A stretch of 64,000 bases of DNA from Psammoneis japonica (taxonomy: Eukaryota). Below are positions 1-44,348 of this stretch, in pieces (the first letter of the stretch is position 1; the number at the start of each line of letters is the position of its first letter). Below the pieces are notes generated by a model. That model made no database searches. It had not been told where the DNA came from and was given only the letters and a program-made list of their open reading frames with translations. The stretch covers positions 1-64,000 of the forward strand of contig QPGO01000295.1 of the NCBI GenBank assembly GCA_008632985.1, given 5' to 3'. The position numbers were made by a program, and so were the translations under genes.

Positions 1-1325
1 ACAGCAACAGTGATGCCAGCAACCAGATGACCGCCTGCAAAATGTTGATGATGCGCCACACTTCATCCACAAAAAATCTGGCCATGCTGTGTCCCTTGCA
101 TCTCCCATGATGCCCCTGCCAGCTCACAACAACATCATCATCTGGGAGGGCTGAGCAAGAGACAAAAACAAGCCAACGAAAGGAATGGACATTGGAGGCA
201 ACTGTTCGTCCAACACAAGCAGCACAGTCATTTGTTGTTTTCATGAAATTTTGAGTGCATTTGAAGAGGGAGGAGCTCAACAAAAGTGTCCATGGTTGGC
301 AAAATGACATTTCATTCTGATGCAAAATCAAGTGTCGAGCAAGGGTGTGGTTGCTCCACGAAGATGAGGATGGCTTCTTCCAGTTTGATTTCCTGGTTGG
401 CTGTGATTTGTTTCCATTTGTTGAGGGCCCAGTGAGCAAACAAATGTGTGTGGCTGTTGTCTTGAAGGGTTCACTGGAGTGCATGTGCTTGAAGGAAAGC
501 TGACACCATTTGTGTTTGGCCTTCAGTCTGTGCCTTGGACTTGACCTTCCATGTCCATGTCCTTGCAAAATGCGTTGAAAGCCACAACCCCGTGTTTTGT
601 GACAAGTCAATGTGGTTTGACCCTTTTGTGTTGTTTGAAACAACATGGAAAAGGTGGTTGGTTTGCAGCATTCATCTCATTTTGTTTGGATTCCAGCAAG
701 CTTCATTGGGCAACAAGGATCTCTGTGACAGGGACACATGAAAAAATGATTCTTTTCACATGAGAAATTGGAAAAGACTGCCATTTCTTTGTTGTTTTGT
801 TGAAGTGCATCCCAGCTTGGCTGGGAAGTTCAACAACATCGACATTTGCACCTTGGAAGGCAATGTTGGAGAGAATGATCCCGGCACGTGCAAGCTAAAA
901 TGACGGTCTTTTGGCATTGGTGACAAGAGTGACTGCGATGGAGGTGTGGCTGCGTGTGATTCTCATGATGCTCAGATCGGATGTGTCTCATGACCTGGGC
1001 ATTTGCAATTCGCACATGATCATTTCCAAAAGGTCTGTGACAACAATCAATGCCTTCAAGAGGACATCGCTTGAAAGTTGGTCAGTGTTGGTTTGAGCAC
1101 GTGGGGCTTCTTTGACCACTGAGAATGATGAATCAAACAATGTCTGGTGAAGGTTTGTGTTGTTTCTGCAGCTGTGACTTGTCAATTGCCACTCTCTCTA
1201 ATTCTGGCAGCTGGCGGAGCAGGTGGCCAGCTCAACCACACCTTTCTTGCATTTTTCTTGTGATTCTTTCTAGAAAAAACTCAAAACAGTCAATTCTCTT
1301 TGCCAAGAAGTCTTCCTCCTCTTTT

Positions 1326-3808
1326 TCAATTTTGCTCCTCTTTCTCTTTTTGGCGATTTCCTTTCACGATCTTGATGAGTCTTTCCTTGTCCGCGACAAG
1401 TTCCTCATTGACAAAAAGTTTCATTGTTTGCTCTTGGCGAGTGTCAGTGGCACCCCACCAATCTCTTCCATGGGGGTGAGTGCTCCTGATTTTCTTGTCT
1501 ACAAGTGTGTCTCTGGACAGACCGTTCAAAACCTTGGTCACGAGTGCAGCCGAGAAGACTCCTCGCAATTTCTTGGGGTCACCATCGAGAAACTTCTTGC
1601 AAAACATCTCTGCCATCCTCTGCGTGTTCATGTGGGTCGAATCATTGTGGCAGTTGCTTGAGTCACAGAGAATTGCAAGAATTGCTTGCACTTCCGGGTG
1701 ATCCAAGCACTTGTCTCTTCTGGCAACTTCTTGTGGCTCAAGGACCATGGGCGGCGGCTCATGTGCTCTTTGATTGTGACAATCTCCAATGTCTTTGCAT
1801 CTTTTCTGCTGTCCGGTCTTGCGTGGTGTACAACGCAAGTGGTTTGTCTCTGCTGGGAGAAGGCCAGATGGACCTTTGCCATGCAGTGCATGGCCCAAAG
1901 TCTCTCCTTGACTGGCACGTTGGATCACTTCGTCTGTGTTTTTCCTGCATGCCATCCCAACTTGCGAGTCTCCCTGGGGCATGAGGCAGATGACGCTTTC
2001 CCTTCCATCAGTGGCCAAGAGACTCTTTCCATTGAAAGTCGCATGCCCGAGTGCTTGAATCAAGTTCTCAATGCTGAAACCAACGGCGAGGCACATCACA
2101 AGGTGACTCGGAACTCGTGTGCTGGATCGACATGACGTTGCTCTCCGCATTTTCGAGCAGCCAAACACAAAAATTGGCATCTGCACACTGAACATCGCAT
2201 CAACCTTGGCGACAACCTCTGAGACTTGGCGGTTTGAAATGCAAGAGAAGCCACGCTCTTGACCTGGCAGCTGGTGAGACACCCCTTGCCCCATGCAGGT
2301 GAGAGCCACGATTGGCTTGCCGACGCAAGCACACATTTCTTGCACAAGCGCTGCCTTCTCAAAAATGTTGCCTTTGACCCGTGCCCTTCGTGTGGCGCAA
2401 TCGAGCAAGAGGACCCCCGGTTTGTTGTCGCCCAATGCTTGGTCGTACATCATCTTCATCTTCTTGTTCGTGCAGGGGATGGTGGCGCCGATTTTGGTGG
2501 CGGAAGGAAACCCAGCTCTGCCTTGGAAGCCAATGTCGTCATCAAAAGTCTTTCATCTTGCACACTTTGATCGCACACAGGTTCCTCAGCTGTTTTGATG
2601 TTCTCTTCGCTTGTGTGGTTGATGTTGTTTTCTGGGCAGATGGGCTTGCCATTCGAGTCTTTCAGTGGCTCCATGTTCTCAAGACCTGAGCAATCCGAGT
2701 GCGTGCGCAGTTTGAACAAATCAAGACTTTGCTTCAGCTCATGCTTGCAGAGCAGCACAAATGGTTTTGGCGCAGCAGTGACCATGATTTTCAAACACGG
2801 TTTCAACTCCAACAGCCGTTTCATTGCCAATTCCATCTTTTGAGACCCTTCCTTTGTCCTGAAGAAAGCATCTGCCTCGTCCATGATTGGCGCAAACTTG
2901 AACTCTCTCTCATCACATTGTCGCAGCTCTTGGCAGCGTTCCAAAACCTGAGCTCCCAAATTCATCTCACTGGCCACATCGGGAAACACCATCGCGATTC
3001 CATTTTCGGCATTGATGTGGTGCTGGAGATCCGTCATCGCATGGCGCCTTCCATGCGGCGTGAAAACCTTGCCTTGACATTCGGTTCCTTTGGCTTGAGC
3101 CAGAAGCTTGTGGCACAATGCCAGGCTTTCCGACTCATCCTTCGTGAGAATCATCACTGGAACTTTCATCATCAAACACGTGGCCATGATGACGGCTTTG
3201 CAATCAGATTTGCCGCTTTGGGTTAGCCCGCAAGTCAATCGGTCGGGGTGCCTTTCCTGCGCCAGGATCGCAGAAGCGGTGTCAGTCACGACCTCATCAA
3301 TGTCAAGTGTTTGGCATGATTTCAAATCTTTGCACAAGTTTCGCTGCACAATTTTGGAGATGTGCTCTGCCAATGCGTCCTTCTTGTCAGTTTCCTTCAC
3401 AATCTCATAAAAAATGTGTTCACCTTCTAGGTGCATGTTGAACATGGACTCTCCAGTGGACTCTCCAGTGAGCTCGTGCTGAAGCAGCAGCATCTTTTCC
3501 ATTTTCTTCTTCTCGGTTTTGTTTTCTTCAAACTCTTCGAGTGCGTCGGCATCAAAGTCTTCTCGCTCGTGGCAGTTGGGGGCATCCCTGACTTTGTCTG
3601 GCACAGCGTGAAACCACAGTGCAAAGCTGTAAAGAGCTCTTTGCGTGCGGGCCTTGACCCCACGGAGTTTTTGATCTTTGAGCCGTGCAAAGCTGTGCAT
3701 GAGATCGTCAATCGAGCGAATGTTGCAAGAAGAAGCCAGTGTGGCTTGTGTTTCGAGGGGCACATCCAGCTCTTTGTACACATGAAGGAGATCCGGAGGT
3801 AGAGCCAT
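1326..3808 (-). pseudogene. SF2 helicase-like / Z1-type P-loop protein, split into two ORFs (2456-3808 and 1326-2459)
   Basis: Walker A-like GLTQSGKS, Walker B-like IMDEAD, motif III-like VTAAP, C-terminal IFVFGCSKMRRATS and ENLIQALGHATF (QxxGR-like); frame break near 2460-2600; Tyr->Cys/His decay. Confidence 0.65.
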
Positions 3809-4091
3809 TTCGTTTCACTGGAGCTAAAGCATCTGCAACAGGTCCCTGCAAAGCTGTGTCAATCTGCTTTGTGGCAGTGAAAATGGGAAAGAATGTTGAT
3901 TCTCAGCAGGCTGCGCTGGCGGAGTGACGACGACAAATTCTTCTTGAAGAGAATCTTTCACCGCCCTCCACGCCAGCGTTTGCAAAGTTCAAGTTTTCGT
4001 GCACCTCTCTCAAAAGATTCCCCACGCAATCTACTCGCCGAAGGTGCTGTTCTTCATTCCTCTTGGACCGGGGCGCCATCATACGATCACA

Positions 4092-6122
4092 ATGGGCGCC
4101 AAGCGAAAAAAGTTGGAGGAGGAAGCAGAAAAGCTCCTGCGCACACTGGATTCTTGTCGAAACGTCAAAAGACAGTTCGGTGTGGATTCCCACATTTGCC
4201 AGTTCGAAAACAAGATCAAGACAAGGTGTCGAGCGGTTCAAGAGATCCTAGAGCAAGAAACCATCCCAGAAGATGAAGGCCACAATTCTCCATTCCTGCT
4301 GGCACCGCCTGCTTCTTGGATTGGGCCCCGAACACATGCGGGACAGGATGAACCACCATCAATTGTGGGTGATGCCGAAAGGGCAAGTGACCAGAATGGA
4401 GGCCCGGACAAAAAAGCTGCAGGTTCAAGAGAAGAAATAGAGCCAGAGCAAAGATTGTCAGCATCCAAACAGCTTGAGGCAGAGGAACCAGCAGCAGCAG
4501 AACTGGACGAAACTCTGCTCTCATTGCCGGCCGAGTGTGAGAACGAAGTGATTGAGCCGTTTAAAGCCAAGTCAACCGGGGACGAAGAACTGGACAATGA
4601 AATTCCCATGTTTTATGAATTGATTCGAAAAAGTAAACTCACTCTTGCTCTCCAAGGTTTTGGGTCGAAACAAAAGCTGAAAGGCGACACAGAAGTGCAA
4701 AATGCAGGCCCAACTAAAAGATCATTGTCTGACGGCTTTGATCCCGCCAGCCTGCGCATAAAAGGAAAGACCATCCAGAAAGGGCGTTGCCATCAGCACT
4801 TGGAAGAAAGCAACAGATGCAGTCTTGATGTTGTTGTCGCAGTCAAACACTTCTGCACAGAGAAGATTGCAATGTGCATGTTGGTGACACACTTTGAAGA
4901 GACAATCCCAGGTCAACACAAGGATGACTTTGGCTCACATCTTCATGAGTTGTTCCCTCACGTTCAAGTCGAAGGCACTGACGTCGAATTGCCACTGGAC
5001 CCATTTGGGAAAGAACAGTTGAGCGAGATTCCAGATCTTGTCTGTCAGCCACAGACAGAGGGGAAATGGCATCAGTTCGCCCACTGCTGGTCCAAACCAA
5101 GAACCAGAGAGGCGAAGCGATCCGAAAAGCACGTGTTGGATCTATTTGCAGGGTGTGGTGGCATGGGGATCGGGTTTTAGAGATGCGGATTCAAAGTGGC
5201 CAAAGCGATTGAACAAGACACTGCAGCGGTCGAAACTTTGTCTGCAAATGGCTCGCACACGTCCATTTTTGCCGGCGACATTCGCGTGTTCCTCGAACGA
5301 TGCCAAAAAGATCCAGAATGCAAGGCAAGCATTGGTTCCATCGACCACGTGCACGCTTCTCCTCCTTGCCAAGGCTTTTCCGGCACGAACCGCAATGGTG
5401 GCAAGAATGACGAAGAAAACAACCAGCTCTCGCTTTCCTTGATCGATGCAGTGAAGGAGTTTCGTCCTGTTGCAGTTTCTTTCGAGAATGTTCTTGGAAT
5501 GTGGAAACGCAAACATTTCAAGTACATCATGAGAATCGTTGCAGATCTGATGCGCATGGGACACCAGGTTTGCTGCTCCTGCCTCCACGCTTGTGATTTT
5601 GGAGATGCACAGAAGTGTCCAAGGCTCTTTTTGTTTGCGGCACACATGTGTGCCCATGTGCCACCCTTGCCACAAACGACACATGGCAGCGAGGCCGATC
5701 AACTGCCCCGTGTCTCGGTGAGAGATGTTCTTCAGCCATTTGAGGGTCGGTTCGAAGAGGACCCCTCGCTGCAAGAGGACATGGAAAGGCAACGTCTTGC
5801 AGCGGAAGCCCTTGCTCCGGCTGTGAAGACAGGAATGCCGCTGATTCACTGTTTTGAAAATTGCCGTCTTTGTCCATCCAAGTTGAAAGCATTGCAATCC
5901 TTTCCGGCAGACTGTCGATTCTTTGGAACGGCGGCGGAGCAACGAAGGCAAATCGGAAATGCAGCACCTGTGGAGCTCGCCACGGCTGTCGCCCACGTCT
6001 TTCAAGCATCACTGGAGTTTGCGCACTGCAATGAAAGCAGCAGAGAGCAAGGCAGAACTGCGTTTCCTTGGTGTTTCTCACATCCCGCGCCCACGTTCGG
6101 AAGAGAAGGACCGCTCTTTTGA
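4092..6122 (+). pseudogene. C5 DNA cytosine methyltransferase, DNMT4/RID(Masc1)-like, with an in-frame TAG at 5178-5180
   Basis: Motif I LDLFAGCGG, motif IV HASPPCQGFS followed by GKNDEEN, motif VI FENV, motif VIII QKCPRLFL (QKRPRLFL in other copies), motif IX ALQSFP, motif X RQIGNA. ORFs 3999-5180 and 5196-6122 are in the same frame. Confidence 0.88.
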
Positions 6123-7686
6123 GGATCAATGAATGAATGAGTAAAACGAGGATGCATTGCTCTGCTTGGTTGTTTTGCAGTTTTCAACAGCGTGCGAATA
6201 AATGGACGGCACACGTGCCCTCCATTGACACTCTTGTGCGAGATCTTGGGGCATTCATCATCATCTGCCAGGCCTGTCGACAGTCGCCTCATGCGAGTGC
6301 ATGGCACCACTCTTGAGGAAGCTTCAACATGGAAGGATGCCTTTTTAGTTCTTCAGAGATTTCTGACTGTTGCTGCAGTTTGGTGCCCTCTAGAGCGAAA
6401 CGTTTTAATTCACATGTTTCACACAAGTGATCCTCGGATCAGCCCTTTCGTCTTTTCCACCGTTTGCACTCTCAGCAGCAGCACTGGAACTACACTGCTG
6501 CTTGTTTGTTTTGTGGTTTCCAATGGCGCACCAAGGCAACCAGCAGATGCACGGCACACGCACCAACTGTCGACAGTCGCGTCAAGCGAGTGCACGGCGC
6601 CACACTTGAGCCCTTGGCCTTCCTGTCTTGAAAGTTTCAGGGCGCAGACTGTTGGGCTGAGGCATCTCGACGACAAGCAGCTGCATCAAACAGAGTGCTG
6701 CGCCAACGATGAATCCCCCCGTCATGGTCTTGCCTTTTTTGTGCGTCGTCCCTCACCGCGCAGTGGTTTGATGTTTTGGGGGTCATTGCACTCAGAAAGA
6801 CCGACAGACTTCTGGTTCAACAGACAGACAAGTGCAAAATCGATGCACTGTCATCACGATTTTGCACGGGACTGGCTGTTGCACTGCCAAAGCAATGAAT
6901 CAGAAACCCAAAATCAATTTGTTTTGTTTTTAAGGCATTTGCACAATGAGCTGATGGATGGCAAGATGATTGGACTTTCTGAACTTTTTTTGGTGCTGGA
7001 AACTTCGTACGACAGTGATGACAGCAAGCAACGTGCCCCAGAATCTTTTGTCATTGCAGACATTTGGGTCGTTGAGTTTGAGAATGCACTCAGTCATGAA
7101 AGTCCCCGAGAGCAACCTCTGTTTCAAAGCAAAACATTGCACCAATGCCGTGGTCTGTTTTCTGTTTTCCGACCTGTTGCTGTCATGCATTCATCGTTGA
7201 ACAACTGAGACTTCATCAGGGGGACTTTCTTTGCATGTTCATGTTTTGAGCAGTGCAGTCAATCATTGCAACAAGTGCCCATTGCAAAGTCATCCTGTGA
7301 GAGCTTGAGAAAAATGTCATCATCATCATCAGCATTGACAGCAATTTGTTGCACAAATTGCAACAAATGCACGACTGTCAATCTGCCCAACATTGTGCTG
7401 CTGTGCGCTCATTGTGCACATGCCTCAAGAGAGTTGCACTCCTTGTTGAACAGTTGCCTGTGATTGGATGCTCAAAGTTTCTCCTGTGCAGACACATGCT
7501 TCTCATTGTTGCTCAGTTTCTGGTCTGCAGGCACACCAACTCTCATTTTCAATGCACTCTTTTCTCCATTTTGGCTCACCCATCTGTCATTTCTCCTCAC
7601 TGCATTGTGCATCCTCACAAGAGTTGATTGCAACATCCTCAAAGGCGCACCTTGAACTGGAAGTGCTGTCATCTTCAAGGAACTTG

Positions 7687-8612: not shown

Positions 8613-11600
8613 ATGGCATCTTCTTCTGTCGCTGATGGCAGCCATGGCCCTTCCCATCGTCATGATGCGACTGTGGCTGATGACATTGCTGTCGACCAAT
8701 CATCCATCAAGCCTTCTTCCAAACCAACCGAGCGTCAGTTTGAGGAAATTGCCCTTCGTTTTGACACCAGTGGCCCAGAAGTGTCGTGCAAGCCGATGAC
8801 TCTTGTCACCCCTCATTTGCAGGTTCTTCAACAAATTCTCTTCACCTGCTGCAAGGACGTGAAGATCATGGACAATGACAACAACCAAATTGCCCACATT
8901 GACGTTGCCAAATGGGTGTCATCTCTTCAACACAAAAGACACTTCATCATTTCAATGACTCGCAAAGGTGAAAAACGTCCTGTGACTCACTGCTCATGCC
9001 ACCGGATCCTTACAAAAATTCCTCTTCGTGACATTTGCTCTCATCCTCACGTCCAGAGCATTTTGGATTCCAACAATGTGGGCATGAAACGTCATCATTG
9101 GAACAAATCAGATGTTGAAATGGCCTCCCCAGCATGCTGCATTGCTGCCACGACCAAACACACTCCGGCCAACGAAGCTGCAAAAATGTTCCTCCGTGAT
9201 CTTGGGAAATGCCAGATGAAAATGCCAAAGTTCAGGTTGGTGACCACCTCTGTTCGTGCCGACAACAAAGGTCTCGCTCCTCCCCTGCGCGCTGCTGCCT
9301 TCACTGTTGAGGCATTGATGGAAGACTGTCACTCGGCCGGGAACAACAAAGGTCTCGCTCCTCCCCTGTGTGCTGCTGCCTTCGCTGTTGAGGCATTGAT
9401 GGAAGACTGTCGCTCGGCCAGGAAGGCCTTGCTTCATGCATCCAAGAAGTTCCCAACACACATTGTCATGGCCAAGACCCGGTGCATCTCCCCCCTCGCC
9501 TTTTGCAACATGGTCAAAATCCAAGCTCATCGGAATGAAGACACTTTCGTTGTTCCACTGCTGAGTGCTGCTCCGAACATTGTGCTCCATTTTGAGAATC
9601 AGCTCAAGGCATTAAAAGACGTGAAAGCAATCTTCCCATCAAGTGCCACCGCCGGCCGCTGCAACATCCTTGTCAACCGTCTCGAGTTCAAAGTCTGCCA
9701 GGGCTGCCATTTCCACGTGTGTCATGAATCTCATCCCAACAATTTCGAAAGAAGCCTGTCCCACCCCACTCTTTGAGGATCCTCCTCAAGTTTTTGGTGT
9801 GATGGAAGAGATGTCGGACACTGGCAAGTCCATTGCATTGCCCAGCATCTGCAGTTTAGAGCCTCTTGCCTTTTCTGATGTTTCGCCTTTGACAGACAAC
9901 AATGCTTTGGGCAATCATCAACACCCGCCACCGTTGCAATCGGCAGGCCGCGGTCATGATGGCAGAGGTCAAGGTTTCCCCGGCCATGGTGCTCAACAAG
10001 GATCAGCTGTTCCTCCCCACATCCACACCCAGTGCTCCCAGAACTCTCCCTCACTGCCCGGATGCTCCAGCTGCCCCGGCATGATTTCTCCACCACACTC
10101 ACATGCACAGGCCACACAGTCCACTGCCAGTTCCATCACCTCCGTTCAGCCAGCAGACGTCCAACGCAACATGTCTCAGATGCAAGAGAAAACCAAGAGA
10201 GTTTTGGAGGATTTACGTTCTCAGCACTCACGAGATGTGGAGGCGATTGACAACGCATTCATGCAACAACACAAGTGGGGCATCACAGCTTTACATGCTC
10301 AGCACTCTCAACAACTTGCGGGTGTGCAGGACCAGATGAATCAGACAGTCCACCTGCTCCAAGCAAATCATCCAACCCAAACATCTGCATGGAAACGTCC
10401 AAATCACATGGACACACTGGATTGCTCGGCTGATTCACGTGACAAGGAGAAGGATTTTTAGACAGGGGTTGGACTTTGCCACCTCCACCACCTCAAACAA
10501 TCAGGCGTCCACCCGACATCTCATCTCCTGCAAACAAGTCCCTCACCATCTCCCATTTGTTCCACCGCACCGCCAAGTGCCGCAAAATCTCCTGCAACAC
10601 TGCAACACCTGACAGTCAGAGCTCTGAGCCCCAGTCTTCTCCTTGGAGGAGTGTTGCCCAACATGAGCAGTGACTCCACCAGCACATCCTACATCAACGA
10701 ATGGCAATTGCTCTTGAATGGCACCAGCAATGGTGCATCAAGCACTCGAAGCATTGACCTTTCTCAGCCAACATCCAATGATCCTGTTGGTGATGATCTT
10801 CGTCCTGAGCTGCCCCATCATGCTCGTCTGTGTGCATTCAACGCTGATGGTTGTAAATTTGACAAAAGAGGTGGTGACATCCGCGAGCATTGTCAAATGG
10901 CAAATGAGATCCAAGCAGACATCGTGGGCATTTCGGAACTGTGTCTGGACACTGCGCAGTGTGATGTTCTGTCAGTGTGTCGATCTGCTGTCTACAATGC
11001 AATTTCCAACGGATGCGGCACCTTCTCATGCAGCTCAATCCCCTTCACTGCTCAGTGCAAACCTGGTGGAACGGCCCTCTTGTTGGGGAACTCCATCTCA
11101 GCACGACACCGCAGCACAGTCCATCAACCCCAGGAAGGCCTTTTGTGCGGATTTGTCTCATTGCCTGCAAGAGTTCTTGGTCGACTCCAATTGCAAAGTC
11201 ATCATTTGCGGAGATTTCAACACCAATTTCTCAATGGACACGGACACACTTGCCTCCCTCACCCATCGTTTTACCCTTTCGGATGTGTCACATGATTTGA
11301 TGGGCAGCAACGAACTTTCCACACACACGCGAGGATGGAAACGCCTGGATTTCATGCTTGCCACACCCGGTGCTTTGTCTGCTGCCAGGTTCGGTGGATG
11401 TGAAGCATTCGGTTGTCGTGCTGCGTCAGACCATCGTGCTCATTTCGTGGATTTTGACACGATGGCCTTGTTTGGGAATCCTGCCATTGACTTGCCCAAG
11501 GCCAGCTGCAGGGACATCCAGTCTTTGCCTCAACCCCAAGTGACGACCCACTTGGACGCCATCGGACCGATGTCAGCCAGCAGACACATGTTGGCTTGCT

Positions 11601-16555: not shown

Positions 16556-16737
16556 CGAGTGAATCTGGATGGAGGGCCATGTCACAACTGGTGATTGGTC
16601 AAGACACATGGCTCGAGTGGTGCTGCAGCAACATGCTCACAATCTAATCAGGTTTAGGTTTGCATTGACAGTGTCGCTGCTTTCTGTTTAGACTTAAGGT
16701 GTCGTGCTTGTTCTTTTGTTGCATCGAGATTTATTCG
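16556..16737 (+). repeat. 5' LTR of copia copy 1
   Basis: Direct repeat of 23173-23354; inverted termini cgagtgaatct...agatttattcg; followed by ctttgtcagagcca (iMet PBS-like TATCAGAGCCA with TA->TG). Confidence 0.88.
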
Positions 16738-17152
16738 CTTTGTCAGAGCCAAGACGAAAAAGACAGAGCGAAATGGTTTTGAGTGCAATTCGTCATGGAC
16801 GATTGTTTGTTGTGTTGTTTGCTTGGAACGTGCAGCTGTAGAAATGGCGCTGAACTGCACGCGATGTGTCAGAATTCGGATTGATGCACACGATGATGCG
16901 TCTCGTGTCGCTTGTTGCAACATCCACAAAAACAGCTTGCAATGGCAATGCTCGCAAAGATGGTCACTGTCCTCACATGTGCAACGGGTGTGAAGGGACT
17001 GCGGTGTTGGGCGACATGCCCAAGCGTGTGCTCAACAATGTTGGTTGACATGAATGACACAGGACTGATCACCCTGGCGTCAGGTGGCTGTGTGAACCCG
17101 TTGTCACAACACAGAGAAAGTGCAGCCATCATGACCATGCAGACTCACAGCT

Positions 17153-18676: not shown

Positions 18677-18685
18677 CTCCTTGGG

Positions 18686-23179: not shown

Positions 23180-23354
23180 ATCTGGATGGAGGGCCATGTT
23201 GCAATTGGCGATTGGTTGAGATGCATGGTTCGAGTGGTGCTGCAGCGACACGCTCACAATCTAATCAGGTTTAGGTTCGCATTGACAGTGTCACCACTTT
23301 CTGTTTAGACTCAAGGCATCATGCTTGTTCTTTCGTTGCATCGAGATTCATTTG
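23173..23354 (+). repeat. 3' LTR of copia copy 1
   Basis: Matches 16556-16737 over 182 bp; differences are mostly TA or CpG transitions. Confidence 0.88.
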
Positions 23355-30822: not shown

Positions 30823-33547
30823 GAAAAAGGGAGAGTGTTCACCAGGCAGCACACAAACAACACAAAACCCAGGAAAAGCAAAAGAAATTCTCTGTGCCAC
30901 AAAAGAATCCAGGAAAATCTCAATGCATAAACACGCTTGCTTGCCCAAACGAAAATTCAGCCACTTTTGTGTTTAGTTGCAAAGATGCCCTTTTCATTTC
31001 ATGCATGCACTTGCTCAGGAAAGACAAGCTGTTGCAACACAAAGATGAGACACTTTCCGGCAAGAAAGCTGTGTTGCTCATTCATGTCCATTTTTCCATT
31101 TGTGCAGATTTGCCACATCTAACTGATCACATGCTTGGCACACAAGCAGTCATTCACAGAGCACATCAGGCTGCTCTGCTTGGCAAAAAACAGGTGCAGT
31201 GACAAGTGGCCTTGCCAATGCTCTGTCACTGGGACATTTCGCTCTTTTTTGTCCTTGTGCATCTCCTGCTGTGGGAGTCCTCTGTCACAAGCCATTGCTG
31301 GCAATTGCCAGCTGCAATCAGCAAGGTGCATGTGCTGTCACAGACCATTCACATTGTTGTCAACACTCACACTCAAGTTGGAAATTCCATTCCACTGATT
31401 TGTCGCAGCACCTCAAAATCATTTTGAGTCCACAACACATCTTTTTTGCCACTTGCATGACAAGCAGCTCAGCGAACTTGAGAGCAAGTGCACAAGTTTC
31501 AAAGTGTGCCTGACTGCCATGATTTTTTGTTTTTTCACAGCAGTGCACACACACAAAGGCTTGGGCAACATTTGTCACAAGCACCATCTCCTCATTTTGT
31601 CAAATTTTGCTCACTCTTTGCACCCAGCAGAGAGCTGAGTGTGATTTGGGCAGCAGCGCAGTGCAGCAGCAACATTTTCACAAGGGACAAACAAGCAAGA
31701 TGGAGCTGTGCAAATGCTTGCACAAAGTTGCCAATGGAGCTCTTCATGGGGCTGCCTTTGTGGGCTGCCTCTTGAGAGCTGTTCTTGCAGAGCTGATGCT
31801 CTCTGAGTGGCATCTTGGCAACCAACCAGTCTGGTCTCTGCTCTGAAAGGACAATTTGTGCTTTTCACTGTGAGAGCACTGGCTGGCTCAAAAAGTCCAA
31901 ATGCAGCTGATGTTTGAGCTTCGACTCTCTGTGCTCCTGTGAGAGCTTTTGGCATCAGCAACAGACTGCTCCATGTGGTTGAGGCAACACCAGCACATGC
32001 CAAAAATGAGCTTTTTTGGCAACACACAGGTTTCTACACAGATTGGGAATGAGATGGCAACACCTCCTGTGTGAAAACACTTTTTCGGTTTTTGGTGATT
32101 CCCAAACACCGGCTCTGGCGGATGACCAAAACAAACAACAAACACGCAATGGCGTGTTTGAATCCATTTCATGATGGCAGTTGTCAGCCAATCATGACAC
32201 AAGTCAATGCAGTCAACACTTTTGATTGAATGTCATCTGCAGCATGAAAGACAAGGTGAAATGTGGTGCCAGCACCGCAGATCAAGTTGTGTCAGAAAAG
32301 TGCTGTTCTTGTGTCATGTTGTCACAAATGCAAATCACAAGGCAACTGGAGTGATGGCTGAGGCAAAAGTGGGGCCCTAAAATGTGGCGGATTGAACAGT
32401 CACATTTTTTCCTCTCTTCCATGTGTCTCATGTGCAGAAGACTGTGGTCTGTTTTGTGGGGCCCATTTTGTGTGGGCACAAACACAAGCCCTGAGGCAAC
32501 ATGAACAACAGCTTCATTTTGTCTGAATTGCGTCTTTTCAAGACAAGTTGTCAGTCCATTTGGGAAGATGATGCCAAGTGCAAAAAAAAAGCTGTGCATC
32601 CCAGGATGCTGTCAAATGCTCTGTTTCCTTCAACCAAGTGACCTGCTGCACTGTTGGTCAGTGTCTCCTTGGCTTGCCCATGCAAAGAAACTGCGAGTTT
32701 TGAGGTCCCTGGATGAGACATTGCAGCTGCAAAAATGAAGGTCCTGATTTTTTGCCCCAAGTTTTTGAATTGGGTGCTTGTGTGGAAAAAAGTGTCAAAA
32801 GGTGCAGTTTCTTTCACTCAACAGGCAGCTGAGACAGTGGAGAAAGTGTCTGCATGCTTGAGCTGTCAAGTGTTTTTGTCTTGGAAGTGCCTTTCATGGC
32901 CCTTCCGAGATGACATTGAGCAAAGAGGCAACAAATGAGCAATCGCTGAAATGGAACATTTCCGTTGAGCAACACACTTGCAATCACGTGCATGCCGACC
33001 CATGTGGTTCGCTGACAAAACACAATGCTTTTGTGTGATAAAGGATTCCTGATTCCCATGATTTTCAATGAAAATGTGCGCAGAAACGATTTTCACAATT
33101 TTCGTCTTGCACCACCCCAAACAACGGTTTTTTGGCATTGGTGACAAGAGTGACTGCGATGGAGGTGTGGCTGGGTGTGATTCTCACCATGCTCAGATTG
33201 GGTGTGTCTCATGACCTGGGCATTTGTAATTCACACATGATCATTTCAAAAGGTCTGTGACAACACTCAATGCATTCAGGAGGACATCGCTCGAAGGTCA
33301 ATCAGTGTTGGTTTGAGCACGTGGGGCATCTTCAACCACTGAGAATGACGAATCGAAGAATGTCTGGTGAAGGTTCTTGTTGTTTCTGCAGCTGTGACTC
33401 ATCAATCACCACTCTGTTTAATTCCAGCGGCTGGCGCAGCAGGCAACCAGCTCAACCACACCTTTCTTGCACTTTCTTGTGATTCTTTCCAGTGGAAAAA
33501 ACTTGGGACAGTCAATTCTCTTGACTGAGAAGTCTTCCTCCTCTTTC

Positions 33548-35957
33548 TCACTTGCGCTCCTCTTTCTCTTTTTGGTGATTTCCTTTCACGATCTTGATGA
33601 GTCTTTCCTTGTCCGCGACAAGTTCCTCATTGACAAAAAGTTTCATCGTTCGCTCTTGGTGAGTGTCAGTGACACCCCACCAATCTCTTCCATGGGGGTG
33701 AGTGCTCCTGATTTGTTTGTCTGCAAGCATGTCTCTGGACAGACCGTTCAAAACCTTTGTCGCAAGTGTGGCCGAGAAGACTCCTCGCAATTTCTTGGGG
33801 TCACCATCGAGAAACTTCTTGCAAAACATCTCTGCCATCCTCCGCGTGTTCATGTGGGTCGAATCATTGTGGCAGTTGCTTGAGTCGCAGAGAATTGCAA
33901 GAATGGCTTGCGCTTCTGGGCATTGCCAGTGCTTGTCTCTTCTGGCAACTTCTTGCTGCTCAACACCATGGGCGGCGGCTCACATGCTCTTTGATCATGA
34001 CAATCTCCAATGTCTTTGCATCTTTTCCGCTGTCCGGTCTTGCGTGGTGTGTGACGCAAGCAGTTTGTCTCTGCTGGGAGAAGGCCAGATGGACCTTTGC
34101 CATGCAGCACATGGCCTCAAGTCTCTCCTTGACTGTTGTGTTGGATCACTTCGTCCGTGTTTTTCCTGCGTGCCATCCCAACTTGCGAGTCTCCCTGGGG
34201 CGCAAGGTGGATGACGCTTTCCCTTCCATTGGCGGCCAAGAGACTCTTTCCATTGAAAGTCGCATGCCCAAGTGCTTGAATCAAGTTCTCAATGCTGAAA
34301 CCAATGGCGAGGTGCATCACAAGGTGACTCAGAACTCGTGTGCTGGATCAATGTGACATTGCTCTCCGCATTTTTGAGTGGCCAAACACAAAAATTGGCA
34401 TCTTGCACCAAACATCGCATCAACCTTGGCGACAACCTCTGAGACTTGGCAGTTTGAAATGCATGAGAAGCCACATTCTTGACCTGGCAAGCGGTGAGAC
34501 ACCCCTCGCCCCACGCAGGTGACAGCCACAATTGGCTTGCCGAATTTCTTGCACAAGCGCTGCCTTCTCAAAAATGTTGCCTTTGACCCATGCCCTTCGT
34601 GCGGTGCAATCGAGCAAGAGGACCCCCGGTTCATTGTCACCCAATGCTTGGTCATGCATCATCTTCATCTTGTCGTTCGTGCAGGGGATGGTGGTGCCGA
34701 TTTTGGTGGTGGAAGGAAACCCAGCTCTACCTTGGAAGCCAATGTCATCGTCAAAAGTCTTTCATCTTGCACACTTTGATCGCACACAGGTTCCTCAGCT
34801 GTTTTGATGTTCTCTTCGCTCATGTGGTTGATGTTGTTTTCCAGGCAGATGGGCTTGCCATTCGAGTCTTTCAGTGGCTCCACATTCTCAAGACCTGAGC
34901 AATCCGAGTGCGTGCGCAGTTTGAACAAATCAAGACTTTGCTTCAACTCATGCTCGCAGAGCAGCACAATTGGTTTTGGCGCAGCGGTGGCCATGATTTT
35001 CAAACACGGTTTCAACTCCAACAGCCGTTTCATTGCCAACTCCATCTTTTGAGACCCTTCCTTTGTCCTGAAGAAAGCATCTGCCTGTCCATGATCGCGC
35101 AAACTTGAACTCTCTCTCATCACGTTGTCGCAGCTCTTGGCAGCGTTCCAAAACCTGAGCTCCCAAATTCATCTTGCTGGCCACATCGGGAAACACCATC
35201 GCGATTCCATTTGAAAACCTTGCCTTGATGTTTGGTTCCTTCGGCTCAAGCCAGAAGCTTGTGGTGCAATGCCAGGCTTTCCGACTTGTCCTTCGTGAGA
35301 ATCATTGCTGGAACTTTCATCATCAACCACGTGGCCATGACGACAGCTTTGCAATCAGATTTGCCGCTTTGGGTTGGCCCGTGAGTCATTCGGTCAGGGT
35401 GCCTTTCCTGCGCCAGGATCGCAGAAGCGGTGTCGGTCACTGCTTCATCAATGTCAAGTGTTTGGCACAACTTCAAATCTTCGCACAAGTTTTGCTGCAC
35501 AATTTGGAGATGTGCTCTGCCAATGCGTCCTTCTTGTCAGTGTCCTTTGCAATCTCATAAAAAATGTGTTCACCTTCTAGGTGCATGTTGAACATGGACT
35601 CTCCAGTGGTCTCTCCAGTGAGCTCGTGCTGAAGCTGCAGCATCTTTTCCGTTTTCTTCTTCTTGGTTTGTTTTCTTCAAACTCTTTGAGTGCGTCGGCA
35701 TCAAAGTCTTCTCGCTCGTGGCAGTTGGGGGCATCCCCGACTTTGTCTGGTGCAGCGTGAAACCACAGTGCAAAGCTGTGAAGAGCTCTTTGCGCATGGG
35801 CCTTGACCCCACGGAGTTTTTGATCTTTGAGCTGCACAAAGCTGCGCACGAGATCGTCAATCAAGCGGATGTTGCAAGAAGAAGCCAGTGTGGCTTGTGT
35901 TTCGAGGGGTGTGTCCAGCTCTTTGCACACATGAAGGAGATCCAGTGGCAGAGCCAT
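33548..35957 (-). pseudogene. SF2/Z1-like helicase pseudogene, copy 2
   Basis: MALPLDLLHVCKEL..., GPTQSGKS, ENLIQALGHATF; multiple frameshifts. Confidence 0.7.
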
Positions 35958-36169
35958 TTCGTTTCACTGGATCTACAATGTCTGCAACAGGTCCTTGAAA
36001 AACTGTCTCAATCTGCTTTGTGGCAGTGAAAATGGGAAAGAATGTTGATTCTCAGCGGGCTGCACTGGCGGAGCGACGACGACAAATTCTTCTTGAAGAG
36101 AATCTTTCACCAAAGGTGCTGTTCTTCATTCCTGTTTTCCTTGGACCGGGGCCCCATCATTCGATCACA

Positions 36170-39100
36170 ATGGGCACCAAGCAAAAAAAGTTGGAGGAGG
36201 AAGCAGAAAAGCTCCTGCACACACTGGATTCTTGTCAAAACGTCAAAAGACAGTTCGGCGCGGATTCCCACATTTGCCAGTTCGAAAACAAGATCAAGAC
36301 AAGGTGTCGAGCGGTTCAAGAGATCCTAAAGCAAGAAACCATCCCAGAAGACAAAGGCCACAATTCTCCGTTCCTGCTGGTGCCGCCTGCTTCTTGGATT
36401 GGGCCCCAAACACATGCGGGACAGGACAAACCAACATCACTTGTGGGTTGTGCTGAAAGGGCCAGTCACCAAAATGGAGGCCCGGACGAAAAAGCCACAG
36501 GTTCAAGAGAAGAAAAGGGCCAGAGCAAAGAGTGTTGGCATCCAAACAGCTTGATGCCGAGGAACCAGCAGCAGCAGAACTGGACGAAACTCCGCTCTCA
36601 GTGACAGCCAAGAACAAGAACGAAGTGATTGAGCCATTTAAAGCCAAGTCAACCGGGGACAAAGAACTGGACAATGAAATTCCCATGGTTTGTGAATTGA
36701 TTCGAAAAAGTAAACTCACTCTTGCTCTCCAAGGTTTTGGGTCAAAACAAAAGCTGAAAGGTGACACAGAAGCGCAAAATTTGGGACCAACTAAAAGATC
36801 ATCATATGACGGCTTTGATCCCGCCAGCCTGCGCATAAAAGGAAAGACCATCCAGAAAGGGCATTGCCATCAGCACTTGGAAGAAAGCAACAGATGCAGT
36901 CTTGATGTTGTTGTTGCAGTCAAACACTTCTGCGCAGAGAAGAGTGCAATGCGCACGTTGGTGACACACTTTGAAGAGACAATCCCAGGTCAACACAAGG
37001 ATGACTTTTGTTCACATCTTCATGAGTTGTTCTCTCACGCTCAAGTCGAAGGCACTGAAGTCGAATTGCCGCTGGACCTGTTTGGGAAAGAACTGCTGGG
37101 CAAGATTCCAGATCTTGTCTGTCAGCCGCAGACGGAGGGGAAATGGCATCAGCTTGCCTGCTGCTGGTCCAAACCGAGAACCAGAGAGGCGAAACGATCC
37201 AAAAAGTGCGTGTTGGATCTATTTGCAGGGTGTGGTGGCATGGGGATCGGGTTTGAGAGATGCAGATTCAAAGTGGCCAAAGCAATTGAACAAGACACTT
37301 CAGCGGTCGAAACTTTGTCCGCAAACAGCTCGCACACATCCATTTTTGCCGGCGACATTCGCGTGTTCCTCAAACGATGCCAAAAAGATCCAGAACACAA
37401 GGTGACCATTGGCTCCATTGACCACGTGCACGCTTCTCCTCCTTGCCAAGGCTTTTCTGGCACAAACCGCAATGGTGGCAAGAATGACGAAGAAAACAAC
37501 CAGCTCTCGCTTTCCTTGATCAATGCAGTGAATGTGTTTCGTCCGGCTGCAGTTTCATTCAAGAATGTTCTTGGAATGTGGAAATGCAAACACATCAAGC
37601 ACATCATGAGAATTGTTGCAGATCTGACACGTGTGGGATGCCAGGTTTGCTGCTCCTGCCTCCGCACTTGTGATTTTGGAGACGCACAGAAGCGTCCAAG
37701 GCTCTTTTTGTTTGGGACAGGATAAACCACCATCAAATGTGGGTGATGACGAAAGGGCAAGTGACCAGAATGGAGGCCCGGACGAAAAAGCTGCAGGTTC
37801 AAGAGAAGAAATGGAGCCAGAGCAAAGATTGTCAGCATCCAAACAGCTTGAGGCAGAGGAACCAGCAGCAGCAGAACTGGACGAAACTCCACTCTCATTG
37901 CCGGCCGAGTGCAAGAACAAAGTGATTGAGCCGTTTAAAGCCAAGTCAACTGGGGACGAAGAACTGGACAATGAAATTCCCATGTTTTATGAATTGATTC
38001 GAAAAAGTAAACTCACTCTTGCTCTCCAAGGTTTTGGGTCAAAACAAAAGCTGAAAGGTGACACAGAAGTGCAGGGTGCAGGCTCAACTAAAAGATCATC
38101 ATCTGACAGCTTCGATCCCGCCAGCCTGCGCATAAAAAGAAAGACCATCCAGAAAGGGCGTTGCCATCAGCACTTGGAAGAAAGCGACAGATGCAGTCTT
38201 GATGTTGTTGTCGCAGTCAAACACTTCTGCACAGAGAAGAGTGCAATGTGCACGTTGGTGACACACTTTGAAGAGACAATCCCAGGTCAACACAAGGATG
38301 ACTTTGGCTCACATCTTCATGAGTTGTTCCCTCACGCTCAAGTCGAAGGCACTGACGTCGAATTGCCACTGGACCCATTTGGGAAAGAACAGTTGAGCAA
38401 GATTCCAGATCTTGTCTGTCAGCCGCAGACAGGGGAAATGGCATCAGTTCGCCCACTGCTGGTCCAAACCGAGAACCAGAGAGGCGAAGCGATCTGAAAA
38501 GCGCGTGTTGGATCTATTTGCAGGGTGTGGTGGCATGGGGATCGGGTTTTAGAGATGCAGATTCAAAGCAGCCAAAGCGATTGAACAAGACACTGCAGCG
38601 GTCGAAACTTTGTCCACAAATTGCTCGCACACGTCCATTTTTGCCGGCGACATTCGCGTGTTCCTTGAACGATGCCAAAAAGATCCAGAATGCAAGGCGA
38701 GCATTGGTTCCATCGACATGTTCCAGCTCCAGGTGGCACCTCGTACTGCTGAACTGTGACACAATTTTTTTTTGTCATCCGTCGCATGTTTCGCACGCAC
38801 ATTTCTGCATGTTCTGTTACAAAAAATTGCTCCACACTGCCTGTTTTGCGAAGCCAAAGGCTTTCTGTCATCTCCACTTGTGTCAATAAAAATGCGCTGG
38901 GCACATTCTTTAATGTCTAAAGAACACACCCGGGCATGCTGCAAAGAATGTGCTTCAAGTGTGGAGGAGGAGATGCGTTCGCAAAATTGCCTCTTTTTCT
39001 GTTGACGATCATTCATGTGTCCATTGCTTGACAATTTCACTGCGGAGCTCGCACGCAGAATTCCACGGGCCCAATGTCACAAAAAGTCCCACCCAGGACT

Positions 39101-39895
39101 GGAACCCGTCCATCGACCACGTGCACGCTTCTCCTCCTTGCCAAGGCTTTTCCGGCGCCAACCGCAATGGTGGCAAGAATGACGAAGAAAAACAACCAGC
39201 TCTTGCTTTCCTTGATCGATGCAGTGAAGGAGTTTTGTCCTGTTGCAGTTTCTTTTGAGAGTGTTCTTGGAATGTGGAAACACAAACATTTCAAGCACAT
39301 CATGAGAATTGTTGCAGATCTGACGCGCATGGGATGCCAGGTTCGCTGCTCCTGCCTCCGCGCTTGTGATTTTGGAGATGCACAGAAGCGTCCAAGGCTC
39401 TTTTTGTTTGCGGCACACACGTGTGCCCATGTGCCACCCTTGCCACAAATGACACGTGGCAGCAAGGCCGATCAACTGCCCCGTGTCTCGGTGAGAGATG
39501 TTCTTTGGCCGTTTGAGGGTCAGTTTGAGGAGGACCCCTTGCTGCAAGAGGACATGGAAAGGCAACGTCTTGCAGCGGAAGCCCTTGCTCCAGCCGTGAA
39601 GACAGGAACGCCGCTGATTCAATGTTTTGAAAATCACCGTCTTTGTCCATCCGAGTTGAAAGCATTGCAATCCTTTCCGGCAGACTGTCGATTCTTTGGA
39701 ACGGCGGGGGAGCAACGAAGGCAAATTGGAAATGCAGCACCTGTGGAGCTCGCCACGGCTGTCGCCCACGTCTTTCAAGCATCACTGGAGTTTACGCACT
39801 GCAATGAGAGCAGCAGAGAGCAAGGCAGAACTGCGTTTCTTTGGCGTTTCTCATGTCCCGCATCTACGTTTGGAAGAGAAGGACCGCTCTTTTAA
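36170..39895 (+). pseudogene. DNMT4/RID-like C5-MTase pseudogene, copies 2 and 3 (partial tandem duplication)
   Basis: DLFAGCGG at ~37215 and ~38511; HASPPCQGFS at ~37429 and ~39124; RQIGNA at ~39720. Confidence 0.85.
38715..39110. mobile_element. GACG-TIR MITE inserted just before MTase motif IV
   Basis: catc|gacatgttccag ... ctggaacccgtc|catc, 4-bp TSD; empty site at 5338-5348. Confidence 0.93.
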
Positions 39896-42800
39896 AGATC
39901 AATGAACAAATGAGTGAAACGAGGATTCATTGCTCTGCTCATTTGTTTTGCAGTTTTCAACAGTGTGCGAATGGATGGACGGTGCACGTGCCCTCCCTTG
40001 ATGCTCTTGTCTGAGATCTTGGGGCATTCGTTGTCGTCCACCAGGCCTGTCGACAGTCGCCTCATGCGAGTGCATCACGCCACTCTTGAGGAAGGATCAA
40101 CATGGAAGGATGCCTTTTTAGTTCTTCAGAGATTTCTCATTGTTGCTGCAGTTTTGGCACCCTCTAGAGCAAAACGTTTTAACTCATGTTGCACACAAGT
40201 GATCCTCGGATCAGCCCTTTCGTCTTTTCCGCCGTTTGCACTCTCTGCAGCAGCACTGGAACCACACTGCTGCTTGTTTGTTTTGCAGTTTCCAGCGGCG
40301 CACCAACAGATGCACGGTGCACGCACCCTTCCTTGAAGCTCTTGTCTGACATCTTGGGGCATTCGTCATCGTCTGCTGCCACAGGCCTGTGTCGACAGTC
40401 ATGTCAAGCGAGCCACGGTGCCACACTTGAGCCCTTGGCCTTCCTGTCTTGAAATTTTCGGGGCGCAGACTAGTGGGCTGGGGCATGTCGAAGACGAGCA
40501 GCTGCATCATCCGAGTGCTGCGCCAACGATGAATCAATCCCCTCCCCGTCATGGTTTCACCTTTCATGTGCGTCCGAATGATGAATTTGGATGGAGCGGT
40601 CTGTCCCTGGATGGGGCAGTTGCAAGGTCAGCATTTAGAGGTGCGCTCATGCGCACACAATCCAGTCAGTTTGGGCTCGCATTGATGCTGTCACTGCTTG
40701 CTTTAGACACAAGCCATTGCTTTTGCTCTTTCGTTGCATCAAGATTTGTTTGCTTTGTCAGAGCCATCAGCAAAAACGCTGATCAAAATGGTTGCAAACA
40801 CAATTTTTCATTGTGAACGATTGTTTGTTGTGTTGTTTGCATGGAGTGTGCAGCTGCAGAAATGGTGCTGAACTGCACGTGCAGTGTTTGAAGAAATGGC
40901 TTTGGATTGTTGCGCACAAAGATGCATCTTTTGTTGCACACAACATCCACTGAACAGCTTGCAATGGAAAATGCTTGCAAAGACAGTCACCATCCTTGTG
41001 TGTGTGTGACGGGTGTGGGGGGGCGGCTGCGGTGCTTGGCAGCATGCCCGAGCGTGTGCTCGACAGTGTCAAATGACACAAGATTGATCACCCTGATGTC
41101 AGGTGGCTGTGTGAACCCATCATCACAACACCACAAAGGTGCAGCCTCCATGACCATGCAGACTCCCAACCGCTTGTTCCCTGCACGGGACATGTTGACA
41201 TTCTCTCTTTGTTGTGGGATGGCAGCAGCACACCAGCACCAGCACCGGCAGTTGTGCTTGCAGCTTCAGCTGTGGCAGCAAATGTCAATGCAGTTCCACA
41301 GATTTGTGGAATCACTGGCCTGAATGTGAGGGCAATGTTGGTGTTCTGCAAAGGATTTGCGATGCTGGAGAATGTCGCAGTTTTGGAGAACAACCATGAT
41401 GTGGAGGATTTGGTGCAGAGGGCCGCTCGTCGCACTGTGGTTGATGGTTGTGTCGCCCTTGGCACTCTTGCAGGCTTCAGCATGCTGGTGTCAGGACTTG
41501 CCAAGAGGAGCCAGGCACTTGTTGTGTCTTTGGCTTGAAACGGCAGGCGCATCAAAAAGGAACACACCAAATCGGATGCGACGGCAAGCAGTCTTGTCGA
41601 GTTCAAGTCTGGGGACTTTGACACATGAGAAGAACCTCTTGGCACAGAAGCATGGTGCACTGAAGGAGCCACTGCTCTGGCATGTTGCAAGGACTGTGCC
41701 AGCACTGGCACAATTCATGGATGCTCAACAGCGATGGATGTGCCAACTGCCGCTTGCCGGCAATGCACATGACAAGGATGGTTGCAATGTGTTTTGCATG
41801 TTGAAGGAATGATTGATTGAAGCAGCAGGATGGACCTGGATTAAACCTTTGATGCAGCAGAAAATGGGTGTGGAGCATTTGATGCATGGATTGATCATTG
41901 CAGTGGACAGGGCAAATTGAGCAAGCACATTTGTTGGTGATGGCCACCATTGAAACACTGTTCTACAAAAAGAAAGGGGTGCTCCCATTTGAGAAGTTCA
42001 ACGAGAAGCTTGCTGGTGCTTTTGCCACTTGGAACAAATCTCCAAATGATCAAAAATCTGAATGGCCAAAGATTGATGTTCTTTTGAAGGCCATTTGAAC
42101 AGACAATGCTCGTCTTGTTGCTGCAACAGCTGTTGTCAGTGATCAGCACCCTCATGACTTTGCGGGGGCATGTGCTCACTTTTCATCCAAAGTCTCTTGT
42201 TTGCATGCAGGCACTCAGTTAGAAGCCTGGCATCACACGAAGTGCAAAATTTCACAGATGAGCTGTGGAGGCAGTGGTGGCTGCAATTTTCATCAAGGTG
42301 GAGGATGTGGCAAACAATGGGGTGGAGGTGGCAACTGCACAACCATGATCAATGGGGTTGATGCATTTTGTCCCACAAGGAGCTTGCCCCTCAAGGATGG
42401 GACAGGCTGCATTTCAATGGAGGAATTGATTGTGCATTCCAAGTGCATGAGAGGATGGGACAAGGCTGCGGCGGTGGCTGCGGATCCCCCACAGGACAAC
42501 CTGGACGTGATTGCAGCGGGGTCCATTGGGAGGAACAAGGATGAAATCAGAAGCCAGATCAATCGCACAGTCAAGGAGGCAGTTGTGGACAAGGTGCCAA
42601 CAGTGATGGTGGTGGATGCAATGGATGTCCTTTTGGTCAAGGAGCCCATCATGGTTCTTTGCCTGACTGTTTGGGGTGGTGACAGCCACTGGAGCTTTGG
42701 AGCATGTGTTGCACTTGTGTTTCTCACTTGTGTTGCTCTCATTGCTTTTGACCAAACCTGCAGGATGTTCAATTTGTGAGAGAAGGCAGCAACAAGGTGC

Positions 42801-43286
42801 GCTGCTGTGACAACAAAATGTGTGATGCGGTCAATCAGCTCCAATCAAATGTCTGAGCTGACAACACCCAGCTTCATTGCTTGGAGCAAATGCAACACTC
42901 ACATGGACACTTGTTGTGCCAGAGTGAGTTGAAAACTCATGGAGCTGACAAATGAGGTGTGCAAGGTTCATCCATTCTTAGAATCTCATGAAACAATCAA
43001 ACAGGTTCCTGTGGCATGTTGTTGCGCTGTGTGGACTTGTCCAGAGACGACCCATGAACTTCCACTCATTGGTGATCAAATGTTGTGGCTCGGGACCAAC
43101 ATGGAACATTCACTCTTGAACCCCAACCAAATGCAAGCATGTGATGTCCCTGTGCATGGCAACCCTTGCGACACTTGAAATGGGTTTGGCGTTGAGGCTG
43201 ATGAGGCTTTCATCCCCTTCCATTGCATGGGGACAATTGCAATTTTCAAGTCTTGTGTCCCTGCAGATTGGGAGGAGCAGAATTTG

Positions 43287-44156: not shown

Positions 44157-44348
44157 TGTGTCAAGAAGAGCAAGGGTGGACCATTTGGACCCACATTGGA
44201 AGTGCTTGAAAGAAGGGACATGTGTCAAGAAGAGCAAGGGTGGGCCATTGGGACCCACATTGGAAGTGCTTGAAAGAAGGGACATGTGTCAAGAAGAGCA
44301 AGGGTGGGCCATTTGGACCCACATTGGAAGCACTTGAAAGAAGGGATG
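44157..44348 (+). repeat. 64-bp tandem triplication within copia copy 2
   Basis: tgtgtcaagaagagcaagggtgg... at 44157, 44221 and 44285. Confidence 0.9.

Follow-up and report, generated by a model that had tools for sequence, protein, structure and literature searches.

In the CglI and NgoAVII restriction-modification systems, each composed of a methyltransferase (M), an endonuclease (R) and a superfamily 2 (SF2) ATPase of the Z1 type, a cytosine-C5 methyltransferase (C5-MTase) gene is found beside the ATPase gene, and the SF2-Z1 subunit of CglI, whose working partner is the nuclease and not the methyltransferase, shows in the complex with that nuclease an ATP turnover that agrees with translocation (PMC4267653). 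MORC-type restriction loci also contain SF2 helicases with DNA methylases (PMC2292703), DNMT1 is derived from an M.NgoFVII-like methylase (PMC3417536), and in DNMT5 a methyltransferase is fused to an SNF2 ATPase (PMC9998398, PMC7862722). Here we describe a window of DNA, i.e. the whole stretch of 64,000 nucleotides that was analysed, from the diatom Psammoneis japonica (assembly GCA_008632985.1, contig QPGO01000295.1, positions 1 to 64,000), in which a DNMT4-like C5-MTase gene and a Z1-related SF2 ATPase (helicase) gene lie head-to-head. Both copies of the pair in the window are dead, hypermutated pseudogenes, which mark a real and conserved two-gene module; the conservation of the pairing across many diatoms points to an undescribed two-part DNA-silencing module. 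No paper describing this pairing in diatoms was found in a literature search that covered few subscription papers.

Diatom DNMT4 is a DNMT1/RID-type C5-MTase, present in 31 of 60 diatoms, which groups moderately with RID, is mostly single-domain and has no known function (PMC9998398); no linked helicase is mentioned in the available part of that paper, nor any helicase in the available part of PMC13398520. The MTase of the window is likewise a diatom C5-MTase of DNMT1 type and its sister clade includes chromodomain forms, but its own clade is set apart by the ATPase gene and by a BAH-like domain in the predicted fold (a domain also predicted in the unlinked diatom clade). RID and Masc1 are DNMT1-related enzymes, without a BAH domain according to a review, from genomes with repeat-targeted hypermutation (PMC7862722). 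The Psammoneis genome resembles those genomes in having a DNMT1-related enzyme and repeat-targeted hypermutation; however, repeat-induced point mutation (RIP) is a C-to-T change at CpA, a signature not found here, where repeat mutation makes TpG/CpA from TpA (the signatures, rather than the enzymes, are compared). We know of no motor gene linked to RID or Masc1. A TpA to TpG/CpA signature identical to that of the window has been described for foreign or repeated DNA in Bigelowiella natans, which, unlike our organism, is a chlorarachniophyte, and for which an ADAT-like deaminase is proposed, with no MTase or helicase named in the available part of the paper (bioRxiv 10.64898/2026.01.13.699255).

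The gene pair and its protein families

The two genes had been predicted to stand head-to-head about 280 bp apart, and their ATG codons are in fact separated by 283 bp. The features of the first copy of the pair (copy 1) are as follows:

1326..3808, minus strand: Z1-related SF2 ATPase pseudogene, copy 1 (ATG at 3808, end at 1326)
2028..2057, minus strand: motif VI, decayed, read as QALGHATFNG (family QxxGRATFNG; H in place of the family R)
2870..2881, minus strand: motif II, DEAD (family form DE[AC]D)
3206..3229, minus strand: Walker A motif, GLTQSGKS (family consensus GxTQSGK)
3809..4091, no strand: 283-bp spacer from ATG to ATG as read from the sequence, a putative bidirectional promoter
4092..6122, plus strand: DNMT4-like C5-methyltransferase pseudogene, copy 1 (ATG at 4092, stop at 6122)
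5358..5372, plus strand: catalytic motif IV, SPPCQ

The copy 1 MTase has a helical N-terminus, an acidic linker, a BAH-like domain (~4760-5100) and a catalytic domain (~5130-6010), with motif I as DLFAGCGG, HASPPCQGFSGTNRNGGKNDEEN at ~5352-5420 and an in-frame TAG at 5178-5180. Its predicted identity is confirmed by motifs I and IV and by the match to Pfam DNA_methylase (PF00145; 107.9 bits, E 9.4e-31, cut-off 22), to which a paralogous MTase on another contig, C59, gives 156.8 bits. The residues P-C-Q, E and R are invariant across 47 relatives, and motifs I, IV, VI, VIII and X characteristic of C5-cytosine DNA methyltransferases are present. In the predicted model (predicted local distance difference test score, pLDDT, 95), residues 1-452 align to mouse DNMT1 745-1600 (Z 37.5, root-mean-square deviation (rmsd) 3.5, 425 residues aligned); DNMT1, ZMET2 and DIM-2 are matched over the full length, with the first 125 residues lying on their BAH domain. 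With a BAH domain before the catalytic domain and DNMT1/CMT/DIM-2 as best solved matches, the predicted fold places the enzyme in that superfamily. As regards a possible descent of both diatom genes from one bacterial operon, the diatom clade (support 99) was not placed within 25 MTases from the neighbourhood of bacterial Z1 helicases, the deep forks being unsettled.

The copy 1 helicase is composed of an N-terminal helical domain of ~85 amino acids (aa), two RecA-like domains and a winged-helix-like C-terminal end, with a single frame break near 2550-2620. Of the motifs announced in the original prediction, GLTQSGKS and DEAD stand, and QxxG(R) survives only as the decayed QALGHATFNG, its Arg lost. 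The assignment of the partner to SF2 holds in the predicted model (pLDDT 88), whose pair of RecA-like domains bears Walker A, DExD and motifs III and VI, and whose solved-fold matches are the repair motors RecG (Z 17.8, rmsd 4.5, 342 residues aligned), FANCM (17.7) and RadD (17.6), effectively tied, and Mfd. The nearest folds overall are uncharacterised giant-virus proteins (HaV01, E 1.1e-16; Atlas clusters) and Z1-containing bacterial proteins in the Atlas, whose rows have a template-modelling (TM) score of 0.42-0.48. At E <=0.001, representatives of 50% clusters include 998 proteins of the family, and the named ones among the best 150 of the 998 are diatoms and cryptophytes. Guillardia theta has four family members and Hanusia phi at least three (P0282, P0283, P0347, P0352).

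For the relationship to Z1, 80 bacterial loci were chosen by a Z1 motif; the three that were checked all carry Pfam Z1, and bacterial controls scored 174-266 bits. A C5-MTase lies within 6 kb of the helicase in 63 of the 80 loci (47 of the 58 with full flanks), and HHalign aligned the diatom family with the bacterial Z1 helicases at 90.5% (E 1.3e-6, 404 columns), as had been expected from the established association of Z1 helicases with bacterial C5-MTases. The family hidden Markov model (HMM) reached E values down to 3.7e-8 (Z=1e6) on Z1 proteins and found none of 3524 non-Z1 open reading frames (ORFs) under E 30, with only 3 other SF2-like controls among them. The Z1 domain itself was not recovered as had been proposed: Pfam Z1 (PF10593) matched neither the partner (0/1 at E <=1) nor its relatives (0/53 at E <=0.01), nor anything in the genome. 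By sequence comparison the helicase is best described as Z1-related by homology and not as a Pfam Z1 member. The diatom pair is like CglI in having a C5-MTase gene beside an SF2 ATPase gene, and the motifs GxxQSGKT, DEAD, TATP/SAT, PxxYxG, SRG and QxGR are homologous between bacterial Z1 helicases and the diatom ATPase; unlike CglI, it is eukaryotic and head-to-head, has no Pfam Z1 match and no nuclease gene common to its loci (14 metagenomic loci and C59), and its MTase carries the BAH-like domain, which is absent from the bacterial matches shown. PADLOC gave no significant match for 8 helicases, a PDB sequence search with the helicase profile returned nothing under E 0.07, and phage records contained no match.

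Two MTases, L056:5799-7811 and P0112, have at their start the ~85-residue domain known otherwise from the N-terminus of the helicase (E ~4e-9), and in some helicases (L047, L049, L054, P0035) it is doubled. Its presence on both partners in one subclade is a hint, from sequence, of possible contact between them. A likeness of this domain to diatom copia Gag was considered and rejected, as no match was found, and an Atlas structure search with it gave nothing at >=0.9. No fused helicase-MTase protein occurs among 53 relatives scanned in length-limited searches.

Linkage of the two genes in other diatoms

A metagenome scan yielded 20 helicase loci, of which those with at least 3 kb of flank on one side were scored (8 have less than 3 kb on both sides). 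An MTase adjoins the helicase in 10 of the 20, head-to-head in 9 and convergent in 1, which amounts to 10 of the 12 scorable loci, or 9 of 10 once the near-duplicates L047/L048 and L050/L057 are merged. Five further helicase and MTase protein pairs share the same source and longest-contig size (8079, 7792, 7264, 8457, 8404), which is indirect evidence. Together with the second pair on C59, these loci bear out the expectation that the linkage extends beyond the window and that the two genes form a module. Beside the pair, no third conserved ORF was found when 14 metagenomic loci were compared with one another and with the stretches of C59 (ORFs >=170 aa; short exons could be missed). Most of the 21 neighbouring ORFs scanned are housekeeping genes, e.g. 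those for cysteinyl-tRNA synthetase, an aldehyde dehydrogenase, a ZIP transporter and a pentatricopeptide repeat (PPR) protein, and several of the loci are broken into exons.

The MTase tree was built from 65 rows, including 13 bacterial outgroup rows; 8 near-duplicates were omitted, as were L059 and copy 2, which are partial, and the bootstrap had not converged completely. One clade of 32 rows (support 98/88) contains every one of the 16 linked MTases, and these 16 are the rows in it whose neighbours are known. This clade is sister to a clade of chromodomain and unlinked diatom forms (97/94) and the Skeletonema menzelii enzyme, and all diatom rows are separated together from bacteria with 100/99 (in a tree without T. 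pseudonana Thaps3_11011). The predicted DNMT4-like character is thus upheld as placement beside the chromodomain diatom enzymes, but the window MTase belongs to the sister clade and not within that group. Tree distances of helicases and MTases are correlated (Spearman 0.75, p 1e-4, 16 pairs), which, as far as sequences can tell, shows co-inheritance and not co-evolution.

Copies of the pair and erasure of TpA

In a search of the whole genome (91.4 Mb, 597 contigs), two copies of the pair were located on the window contig (C297) and one on C301, and the flanks of the pair only on these two contigs. The duplicated units and the genes of the second copy are as follows:

903..6747: duplicated unit, copy 1 (pair with ~420 bp and ~620 bp of flank), from self-BLAST and flank alignments
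33124..40574: duplicated unit, copy 2, same orientation, with more indels; its right end adjoins a copia-like element
33554..35997, minus strand: helicase pseudogene, copy 2, with several frameshifts
36170..39895, plus strand: MTase pseudogene, copy 2 (start approximate)
37714-38717: internal 1-kb duplication inside the copy 2 MTase
38715-39110: dispersed repeat of ~390 bp inside the copy 2 MTase

The two units are ~91-92% identical, and duplication of the pair as one unit, as predicted, is evident from their extents. Positions 1-41793 of C301 align to window positions 31574-1, mostly at 91-99% identity, so the third full copy is the other haplotype of copy 1, i.e. an allele; the three copies of the original prediction are therefore three sequences, made up of two paralogous copies and one allele. 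The helicase frame break is common to all three, which indicates that the helicase was broken, or had an intron that mutation has hidden, before the duplication; this weakens the simple story of a duplication killing a working pair. Within the island the two haplotypes (L063, L064, L029, L030) diverge by 1-9%, for the most part through TA and CG changes that arose separately, and private insertions and deletions add to this.

A paralogous pair is found on C59, likewise head-to-head, with ~580 bp between the genes and with core identity to copy 1 of 40% for the MTase and 29% for the helicase. Its MTase has an open frame of 753 codons with intact motifs; its helicase is split after ~80 codons by a 6.6-kb gypsy element with near-identical long terminal repeats (LTRs) and a 4-base target duplication. 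With both window helicases broken and this one split, the assembly holds no uninterrupted helicase. The insertion (L062:1991-8616) is a young gypsy in the coding sequence of the sole unmutated helicase paralogue, its LTRs differing by one transversion and at no TA site. No contig bridging this gypsy was found in 2 runs of one sample, in which contigs reach 30-40 bases into the LTRs; contigs cannot show absence. The other DNMT4-like genes of the genome, on C10, C34 (with a chromodomain) and C28 (decayed), have no helicase match beside them. The C10 gene (L033:4733-6853, L034) is part of a segmental duplication that also includes ankyrin genes, and its second copy has stop codons.

The depletion of TpA in the window and the pair is far beyond chance. 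TpA observed/expected (o/e) is 0.15 for the window and 0.08 and 0.06 for the pair genes, vs 0.44 and 0.47 for the C59 paralogues, and Tyr codons number 2 of 676 in the window MTase vs 23 of 752 in that of C59. Copies 1 and 2 have 460 differences over 5641 aligned bases: 148 TG/CA double changes, 146 CG vs TG/CA, 20 TA vs TG/CA, 58 other transitions and 88 transversions. Five conserved Tyr columns can be scored in each of the three copies, and 4 of these columns now read differently (His, Cys or Tyr) from copy to copy, from which it follows that TpA was erased independently, after the duplication and after the allele split. Three young gypsy siblings have LTR pairs differing by 8, 19 and 15 TA changes and at most 3 others, so the mutator has been active very recently; and because TA loss in young LTRs runs ahead of CG loss (21/33 vs 1/34), it does not arise as a side effect of CpG methylation. 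No paper describing TpA loss in diatom repeats was found in a search mainly of the open literature.

The gypsy in the C59 helicase is the sole one of four very young whole-LTR copies without TA differences between its LTRs, although its pol region has lost TA sites, 51 of 57 in common with its siblings. The unedited LTR pair, a single case among four, fits a shut-down of the mutator after insertion, and just as well an insertion that is younger or protected. Members of this family (G000) are located at C13:779758-786369, C71:278803-285415, C120:41098-47703, C295:14517-21007 and C59:365044-371655 (L309-L312, L062). Erasure in the young elements is polarised, the 3' LTR and pol being hit and the 5' LTR (4/4 siblings) and gag (3/4) largely spared. 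The metagenome contig L047, from another organism, carries a TA-erased transposon-like remnant at 9741-12395 (TA o/e 0.08-0.15 at 10-12 kb), and the mutator is thus not limited to this genome.

The remainder of the window consists mostly of decayed repeats (copia, LINE-like and short ones), among which stand three host-gene frames whose composition is normal. Copia elements are at 16556-23355, with a 1500-codon pol frame still open despite Tyr codons largely replaced, and at 40575-49700. Host genes with normal TpA within the island encode an LVIVD-repeat/lipase-like protein (28426-30822, intact on C301 too) and a fibronectin III-containing M12 metallopeptidase (51334-54185). An imperfect palindrome of 800 bp (55058-55857, ~80% arm identity) lies in a region of near-normal TpA and CpG, with short direct repeats beside it at 54594-54950.

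Explanations for the pairing

We consider it somewhat probable, at a little above even confidence, that the pair is a co-expressed, ATPase-assisted methylation module, comparable to a DNMT5 divided over two genes or to a CglI without its nuclease; the observed basis is the linkage, the co-inheritance, the folds and the catalytic motifs intact in relatives. This would be an old host module of diatoms, in which a BAH-domain C5-MTase of the DNMT4-like radiation and an SF2 ATPase, probably descended from Z1-type motors of bacterial restriction-modification loci, have been kept head-to-head. Both genes may be co-transcribed from the short spacer, the ATPase would act as a DNA translocase that loads or drives the MTase on chromatin, as SNF2 does inside DNMT5, and the output, without any part played by a nuclease, would be methylated cytosine and the silencing of repeated or foreign sequences. 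One of two ancient paralogous pairs was duplicated locally and ended up in a transposon island, where each copy and allele was separately hit by the TpA-to-TpG/CpA mutator and by CpG decay. The likeness to DNMT5 lies in the coupling of a methyltransferase to an SF2 ATPase; the diatom system differs in that separate genes encode the two parts, that the catalytic domain is of DNMT1 type and that the motor is Z1-related rather than SNF2.

Several points weigh against the proposed shared methylation function. L047/L048 (one organism, 99.95% identical) have long flanks and no MTase, and the gene beside the Seminavis helicase Sro141_g065750, a core gene with piN/piS 0.20 (PMC7335047), carries no InterPro label. 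Linkage and kinship suffice to explain the congruence of the trees, compact genomes often have closely spaced head-to-head genes, and linkage could persist by a shared promoter without a shared pathway. The organism is viable although its assembly lacks any uninterrupted helicase. Most methylation in Phaeodactylum is attributable to DNMT5, and that diatom has no DNMT4 (PMC9998398). Linkage that is regulatory or historical only, with the proteins doing separate jobs (e.g. a repair or replication motor and an MTase) under a shared bidirectional promoter or life-cycle stage, would suit these unlinked helicases, the cryptophyte and giant-virus relatives without a shown MTase neighbour, and the repair motors RecG, FANCM, RadD and Mfd as best solved folds. 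We regard it as unlikely: the MTase stays while all other neighbours change, through a paralogous duplication and one switch to the convergent arrangement, the ~85-residue domain stands on both partners in one subclade, and the bacterial homologues adjoin C5-MTases too.

The original prediction had left open whether the module is a host locus or the cargo of a transposon or virus; the host locus is what the evidence favours. Neighbours that differ at every locus, the local doubling of the whole pair within an island of transposons and giant-virus proteins as the closest helicase folds might suggest transposon or endogenous-virus cargo, or a selfish two-gene element moving as a unit, but this is already largely refuted and very improbable: 91 Mb contain the pair in only 2 places plus the allele and the paralogue in 1, no terminal repeats were seen at the unit ends, the variable neighbours are housekeeping genes, several loci are split into exons, none of 17 viral-contig candidates encodes the helicase, and none of the best 80 viral MTases exceeds 35% identity, nearly all of them matching the catalytic domain only. 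A causal link to the TpA mutator, called speculative at the outset, remains so. On that reading, which we find quite unlikely, the mutator would be a counterpart of RIP in diatoms and the pair the core that targets it: the MTase would mark or recognise repeats as RID does, and the ATPase would open the duplex for an adenine deaminase encoded elsewhere. The DNMT4-like placement in the tree, the published relatedness of diatom DNMT4 to RID (PMC9998398), the gypsy in the C59 helicase as the only 1 of 4 with no TA differences (8, 19 and 15 in the others) and the L047 contig with both a family helicase and TA-erased DNA are in its favour. It has to contend with the established chemistry of C5-MTases, which leaves adenine unchanged, with TA loss far ahead of CG loss in young LTRs, and with elements only 2-7 transversions from the helicase-splitting insertion that are already mutated; the unedited LTR pair, at 1 in 4, carries no significance and is equally explained by youngest age or genic position, no third conserved gene such as a deaminase is common to the loci, and no Bigelowiella is among the named matches (a weak negative). 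Just as unlikely is the fuller version, in which a RID-related MTase and a restriction-derived motor together expose repeats to adenine deamination at TpA as a RIP-like diatom defence, a system that would have erased its own duplicated copies and whose last helicase has just been hit by a retrotransposon.

The linkage supplies one branch of the DNMT4-like enzymes of diatoms, DNMT4 being so far without a known function (PMC9998398), with a specific and testable partner, and the DNMT4-like family now divides into helicase-linked and unlinked clades. In the reading that we favour, eukaryotes would have domesticated a Z1-related motor of restriction systems and combined it once more with a cytosine methyltransferase, which would be a third way of coupling ATP to DNA methylation, beside the fused SNF2 of DNMT5 and HELLS/DDM1. 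The pair may also serve as a concrete candidate for the TpA mutator, which still has no assigned enzyme.

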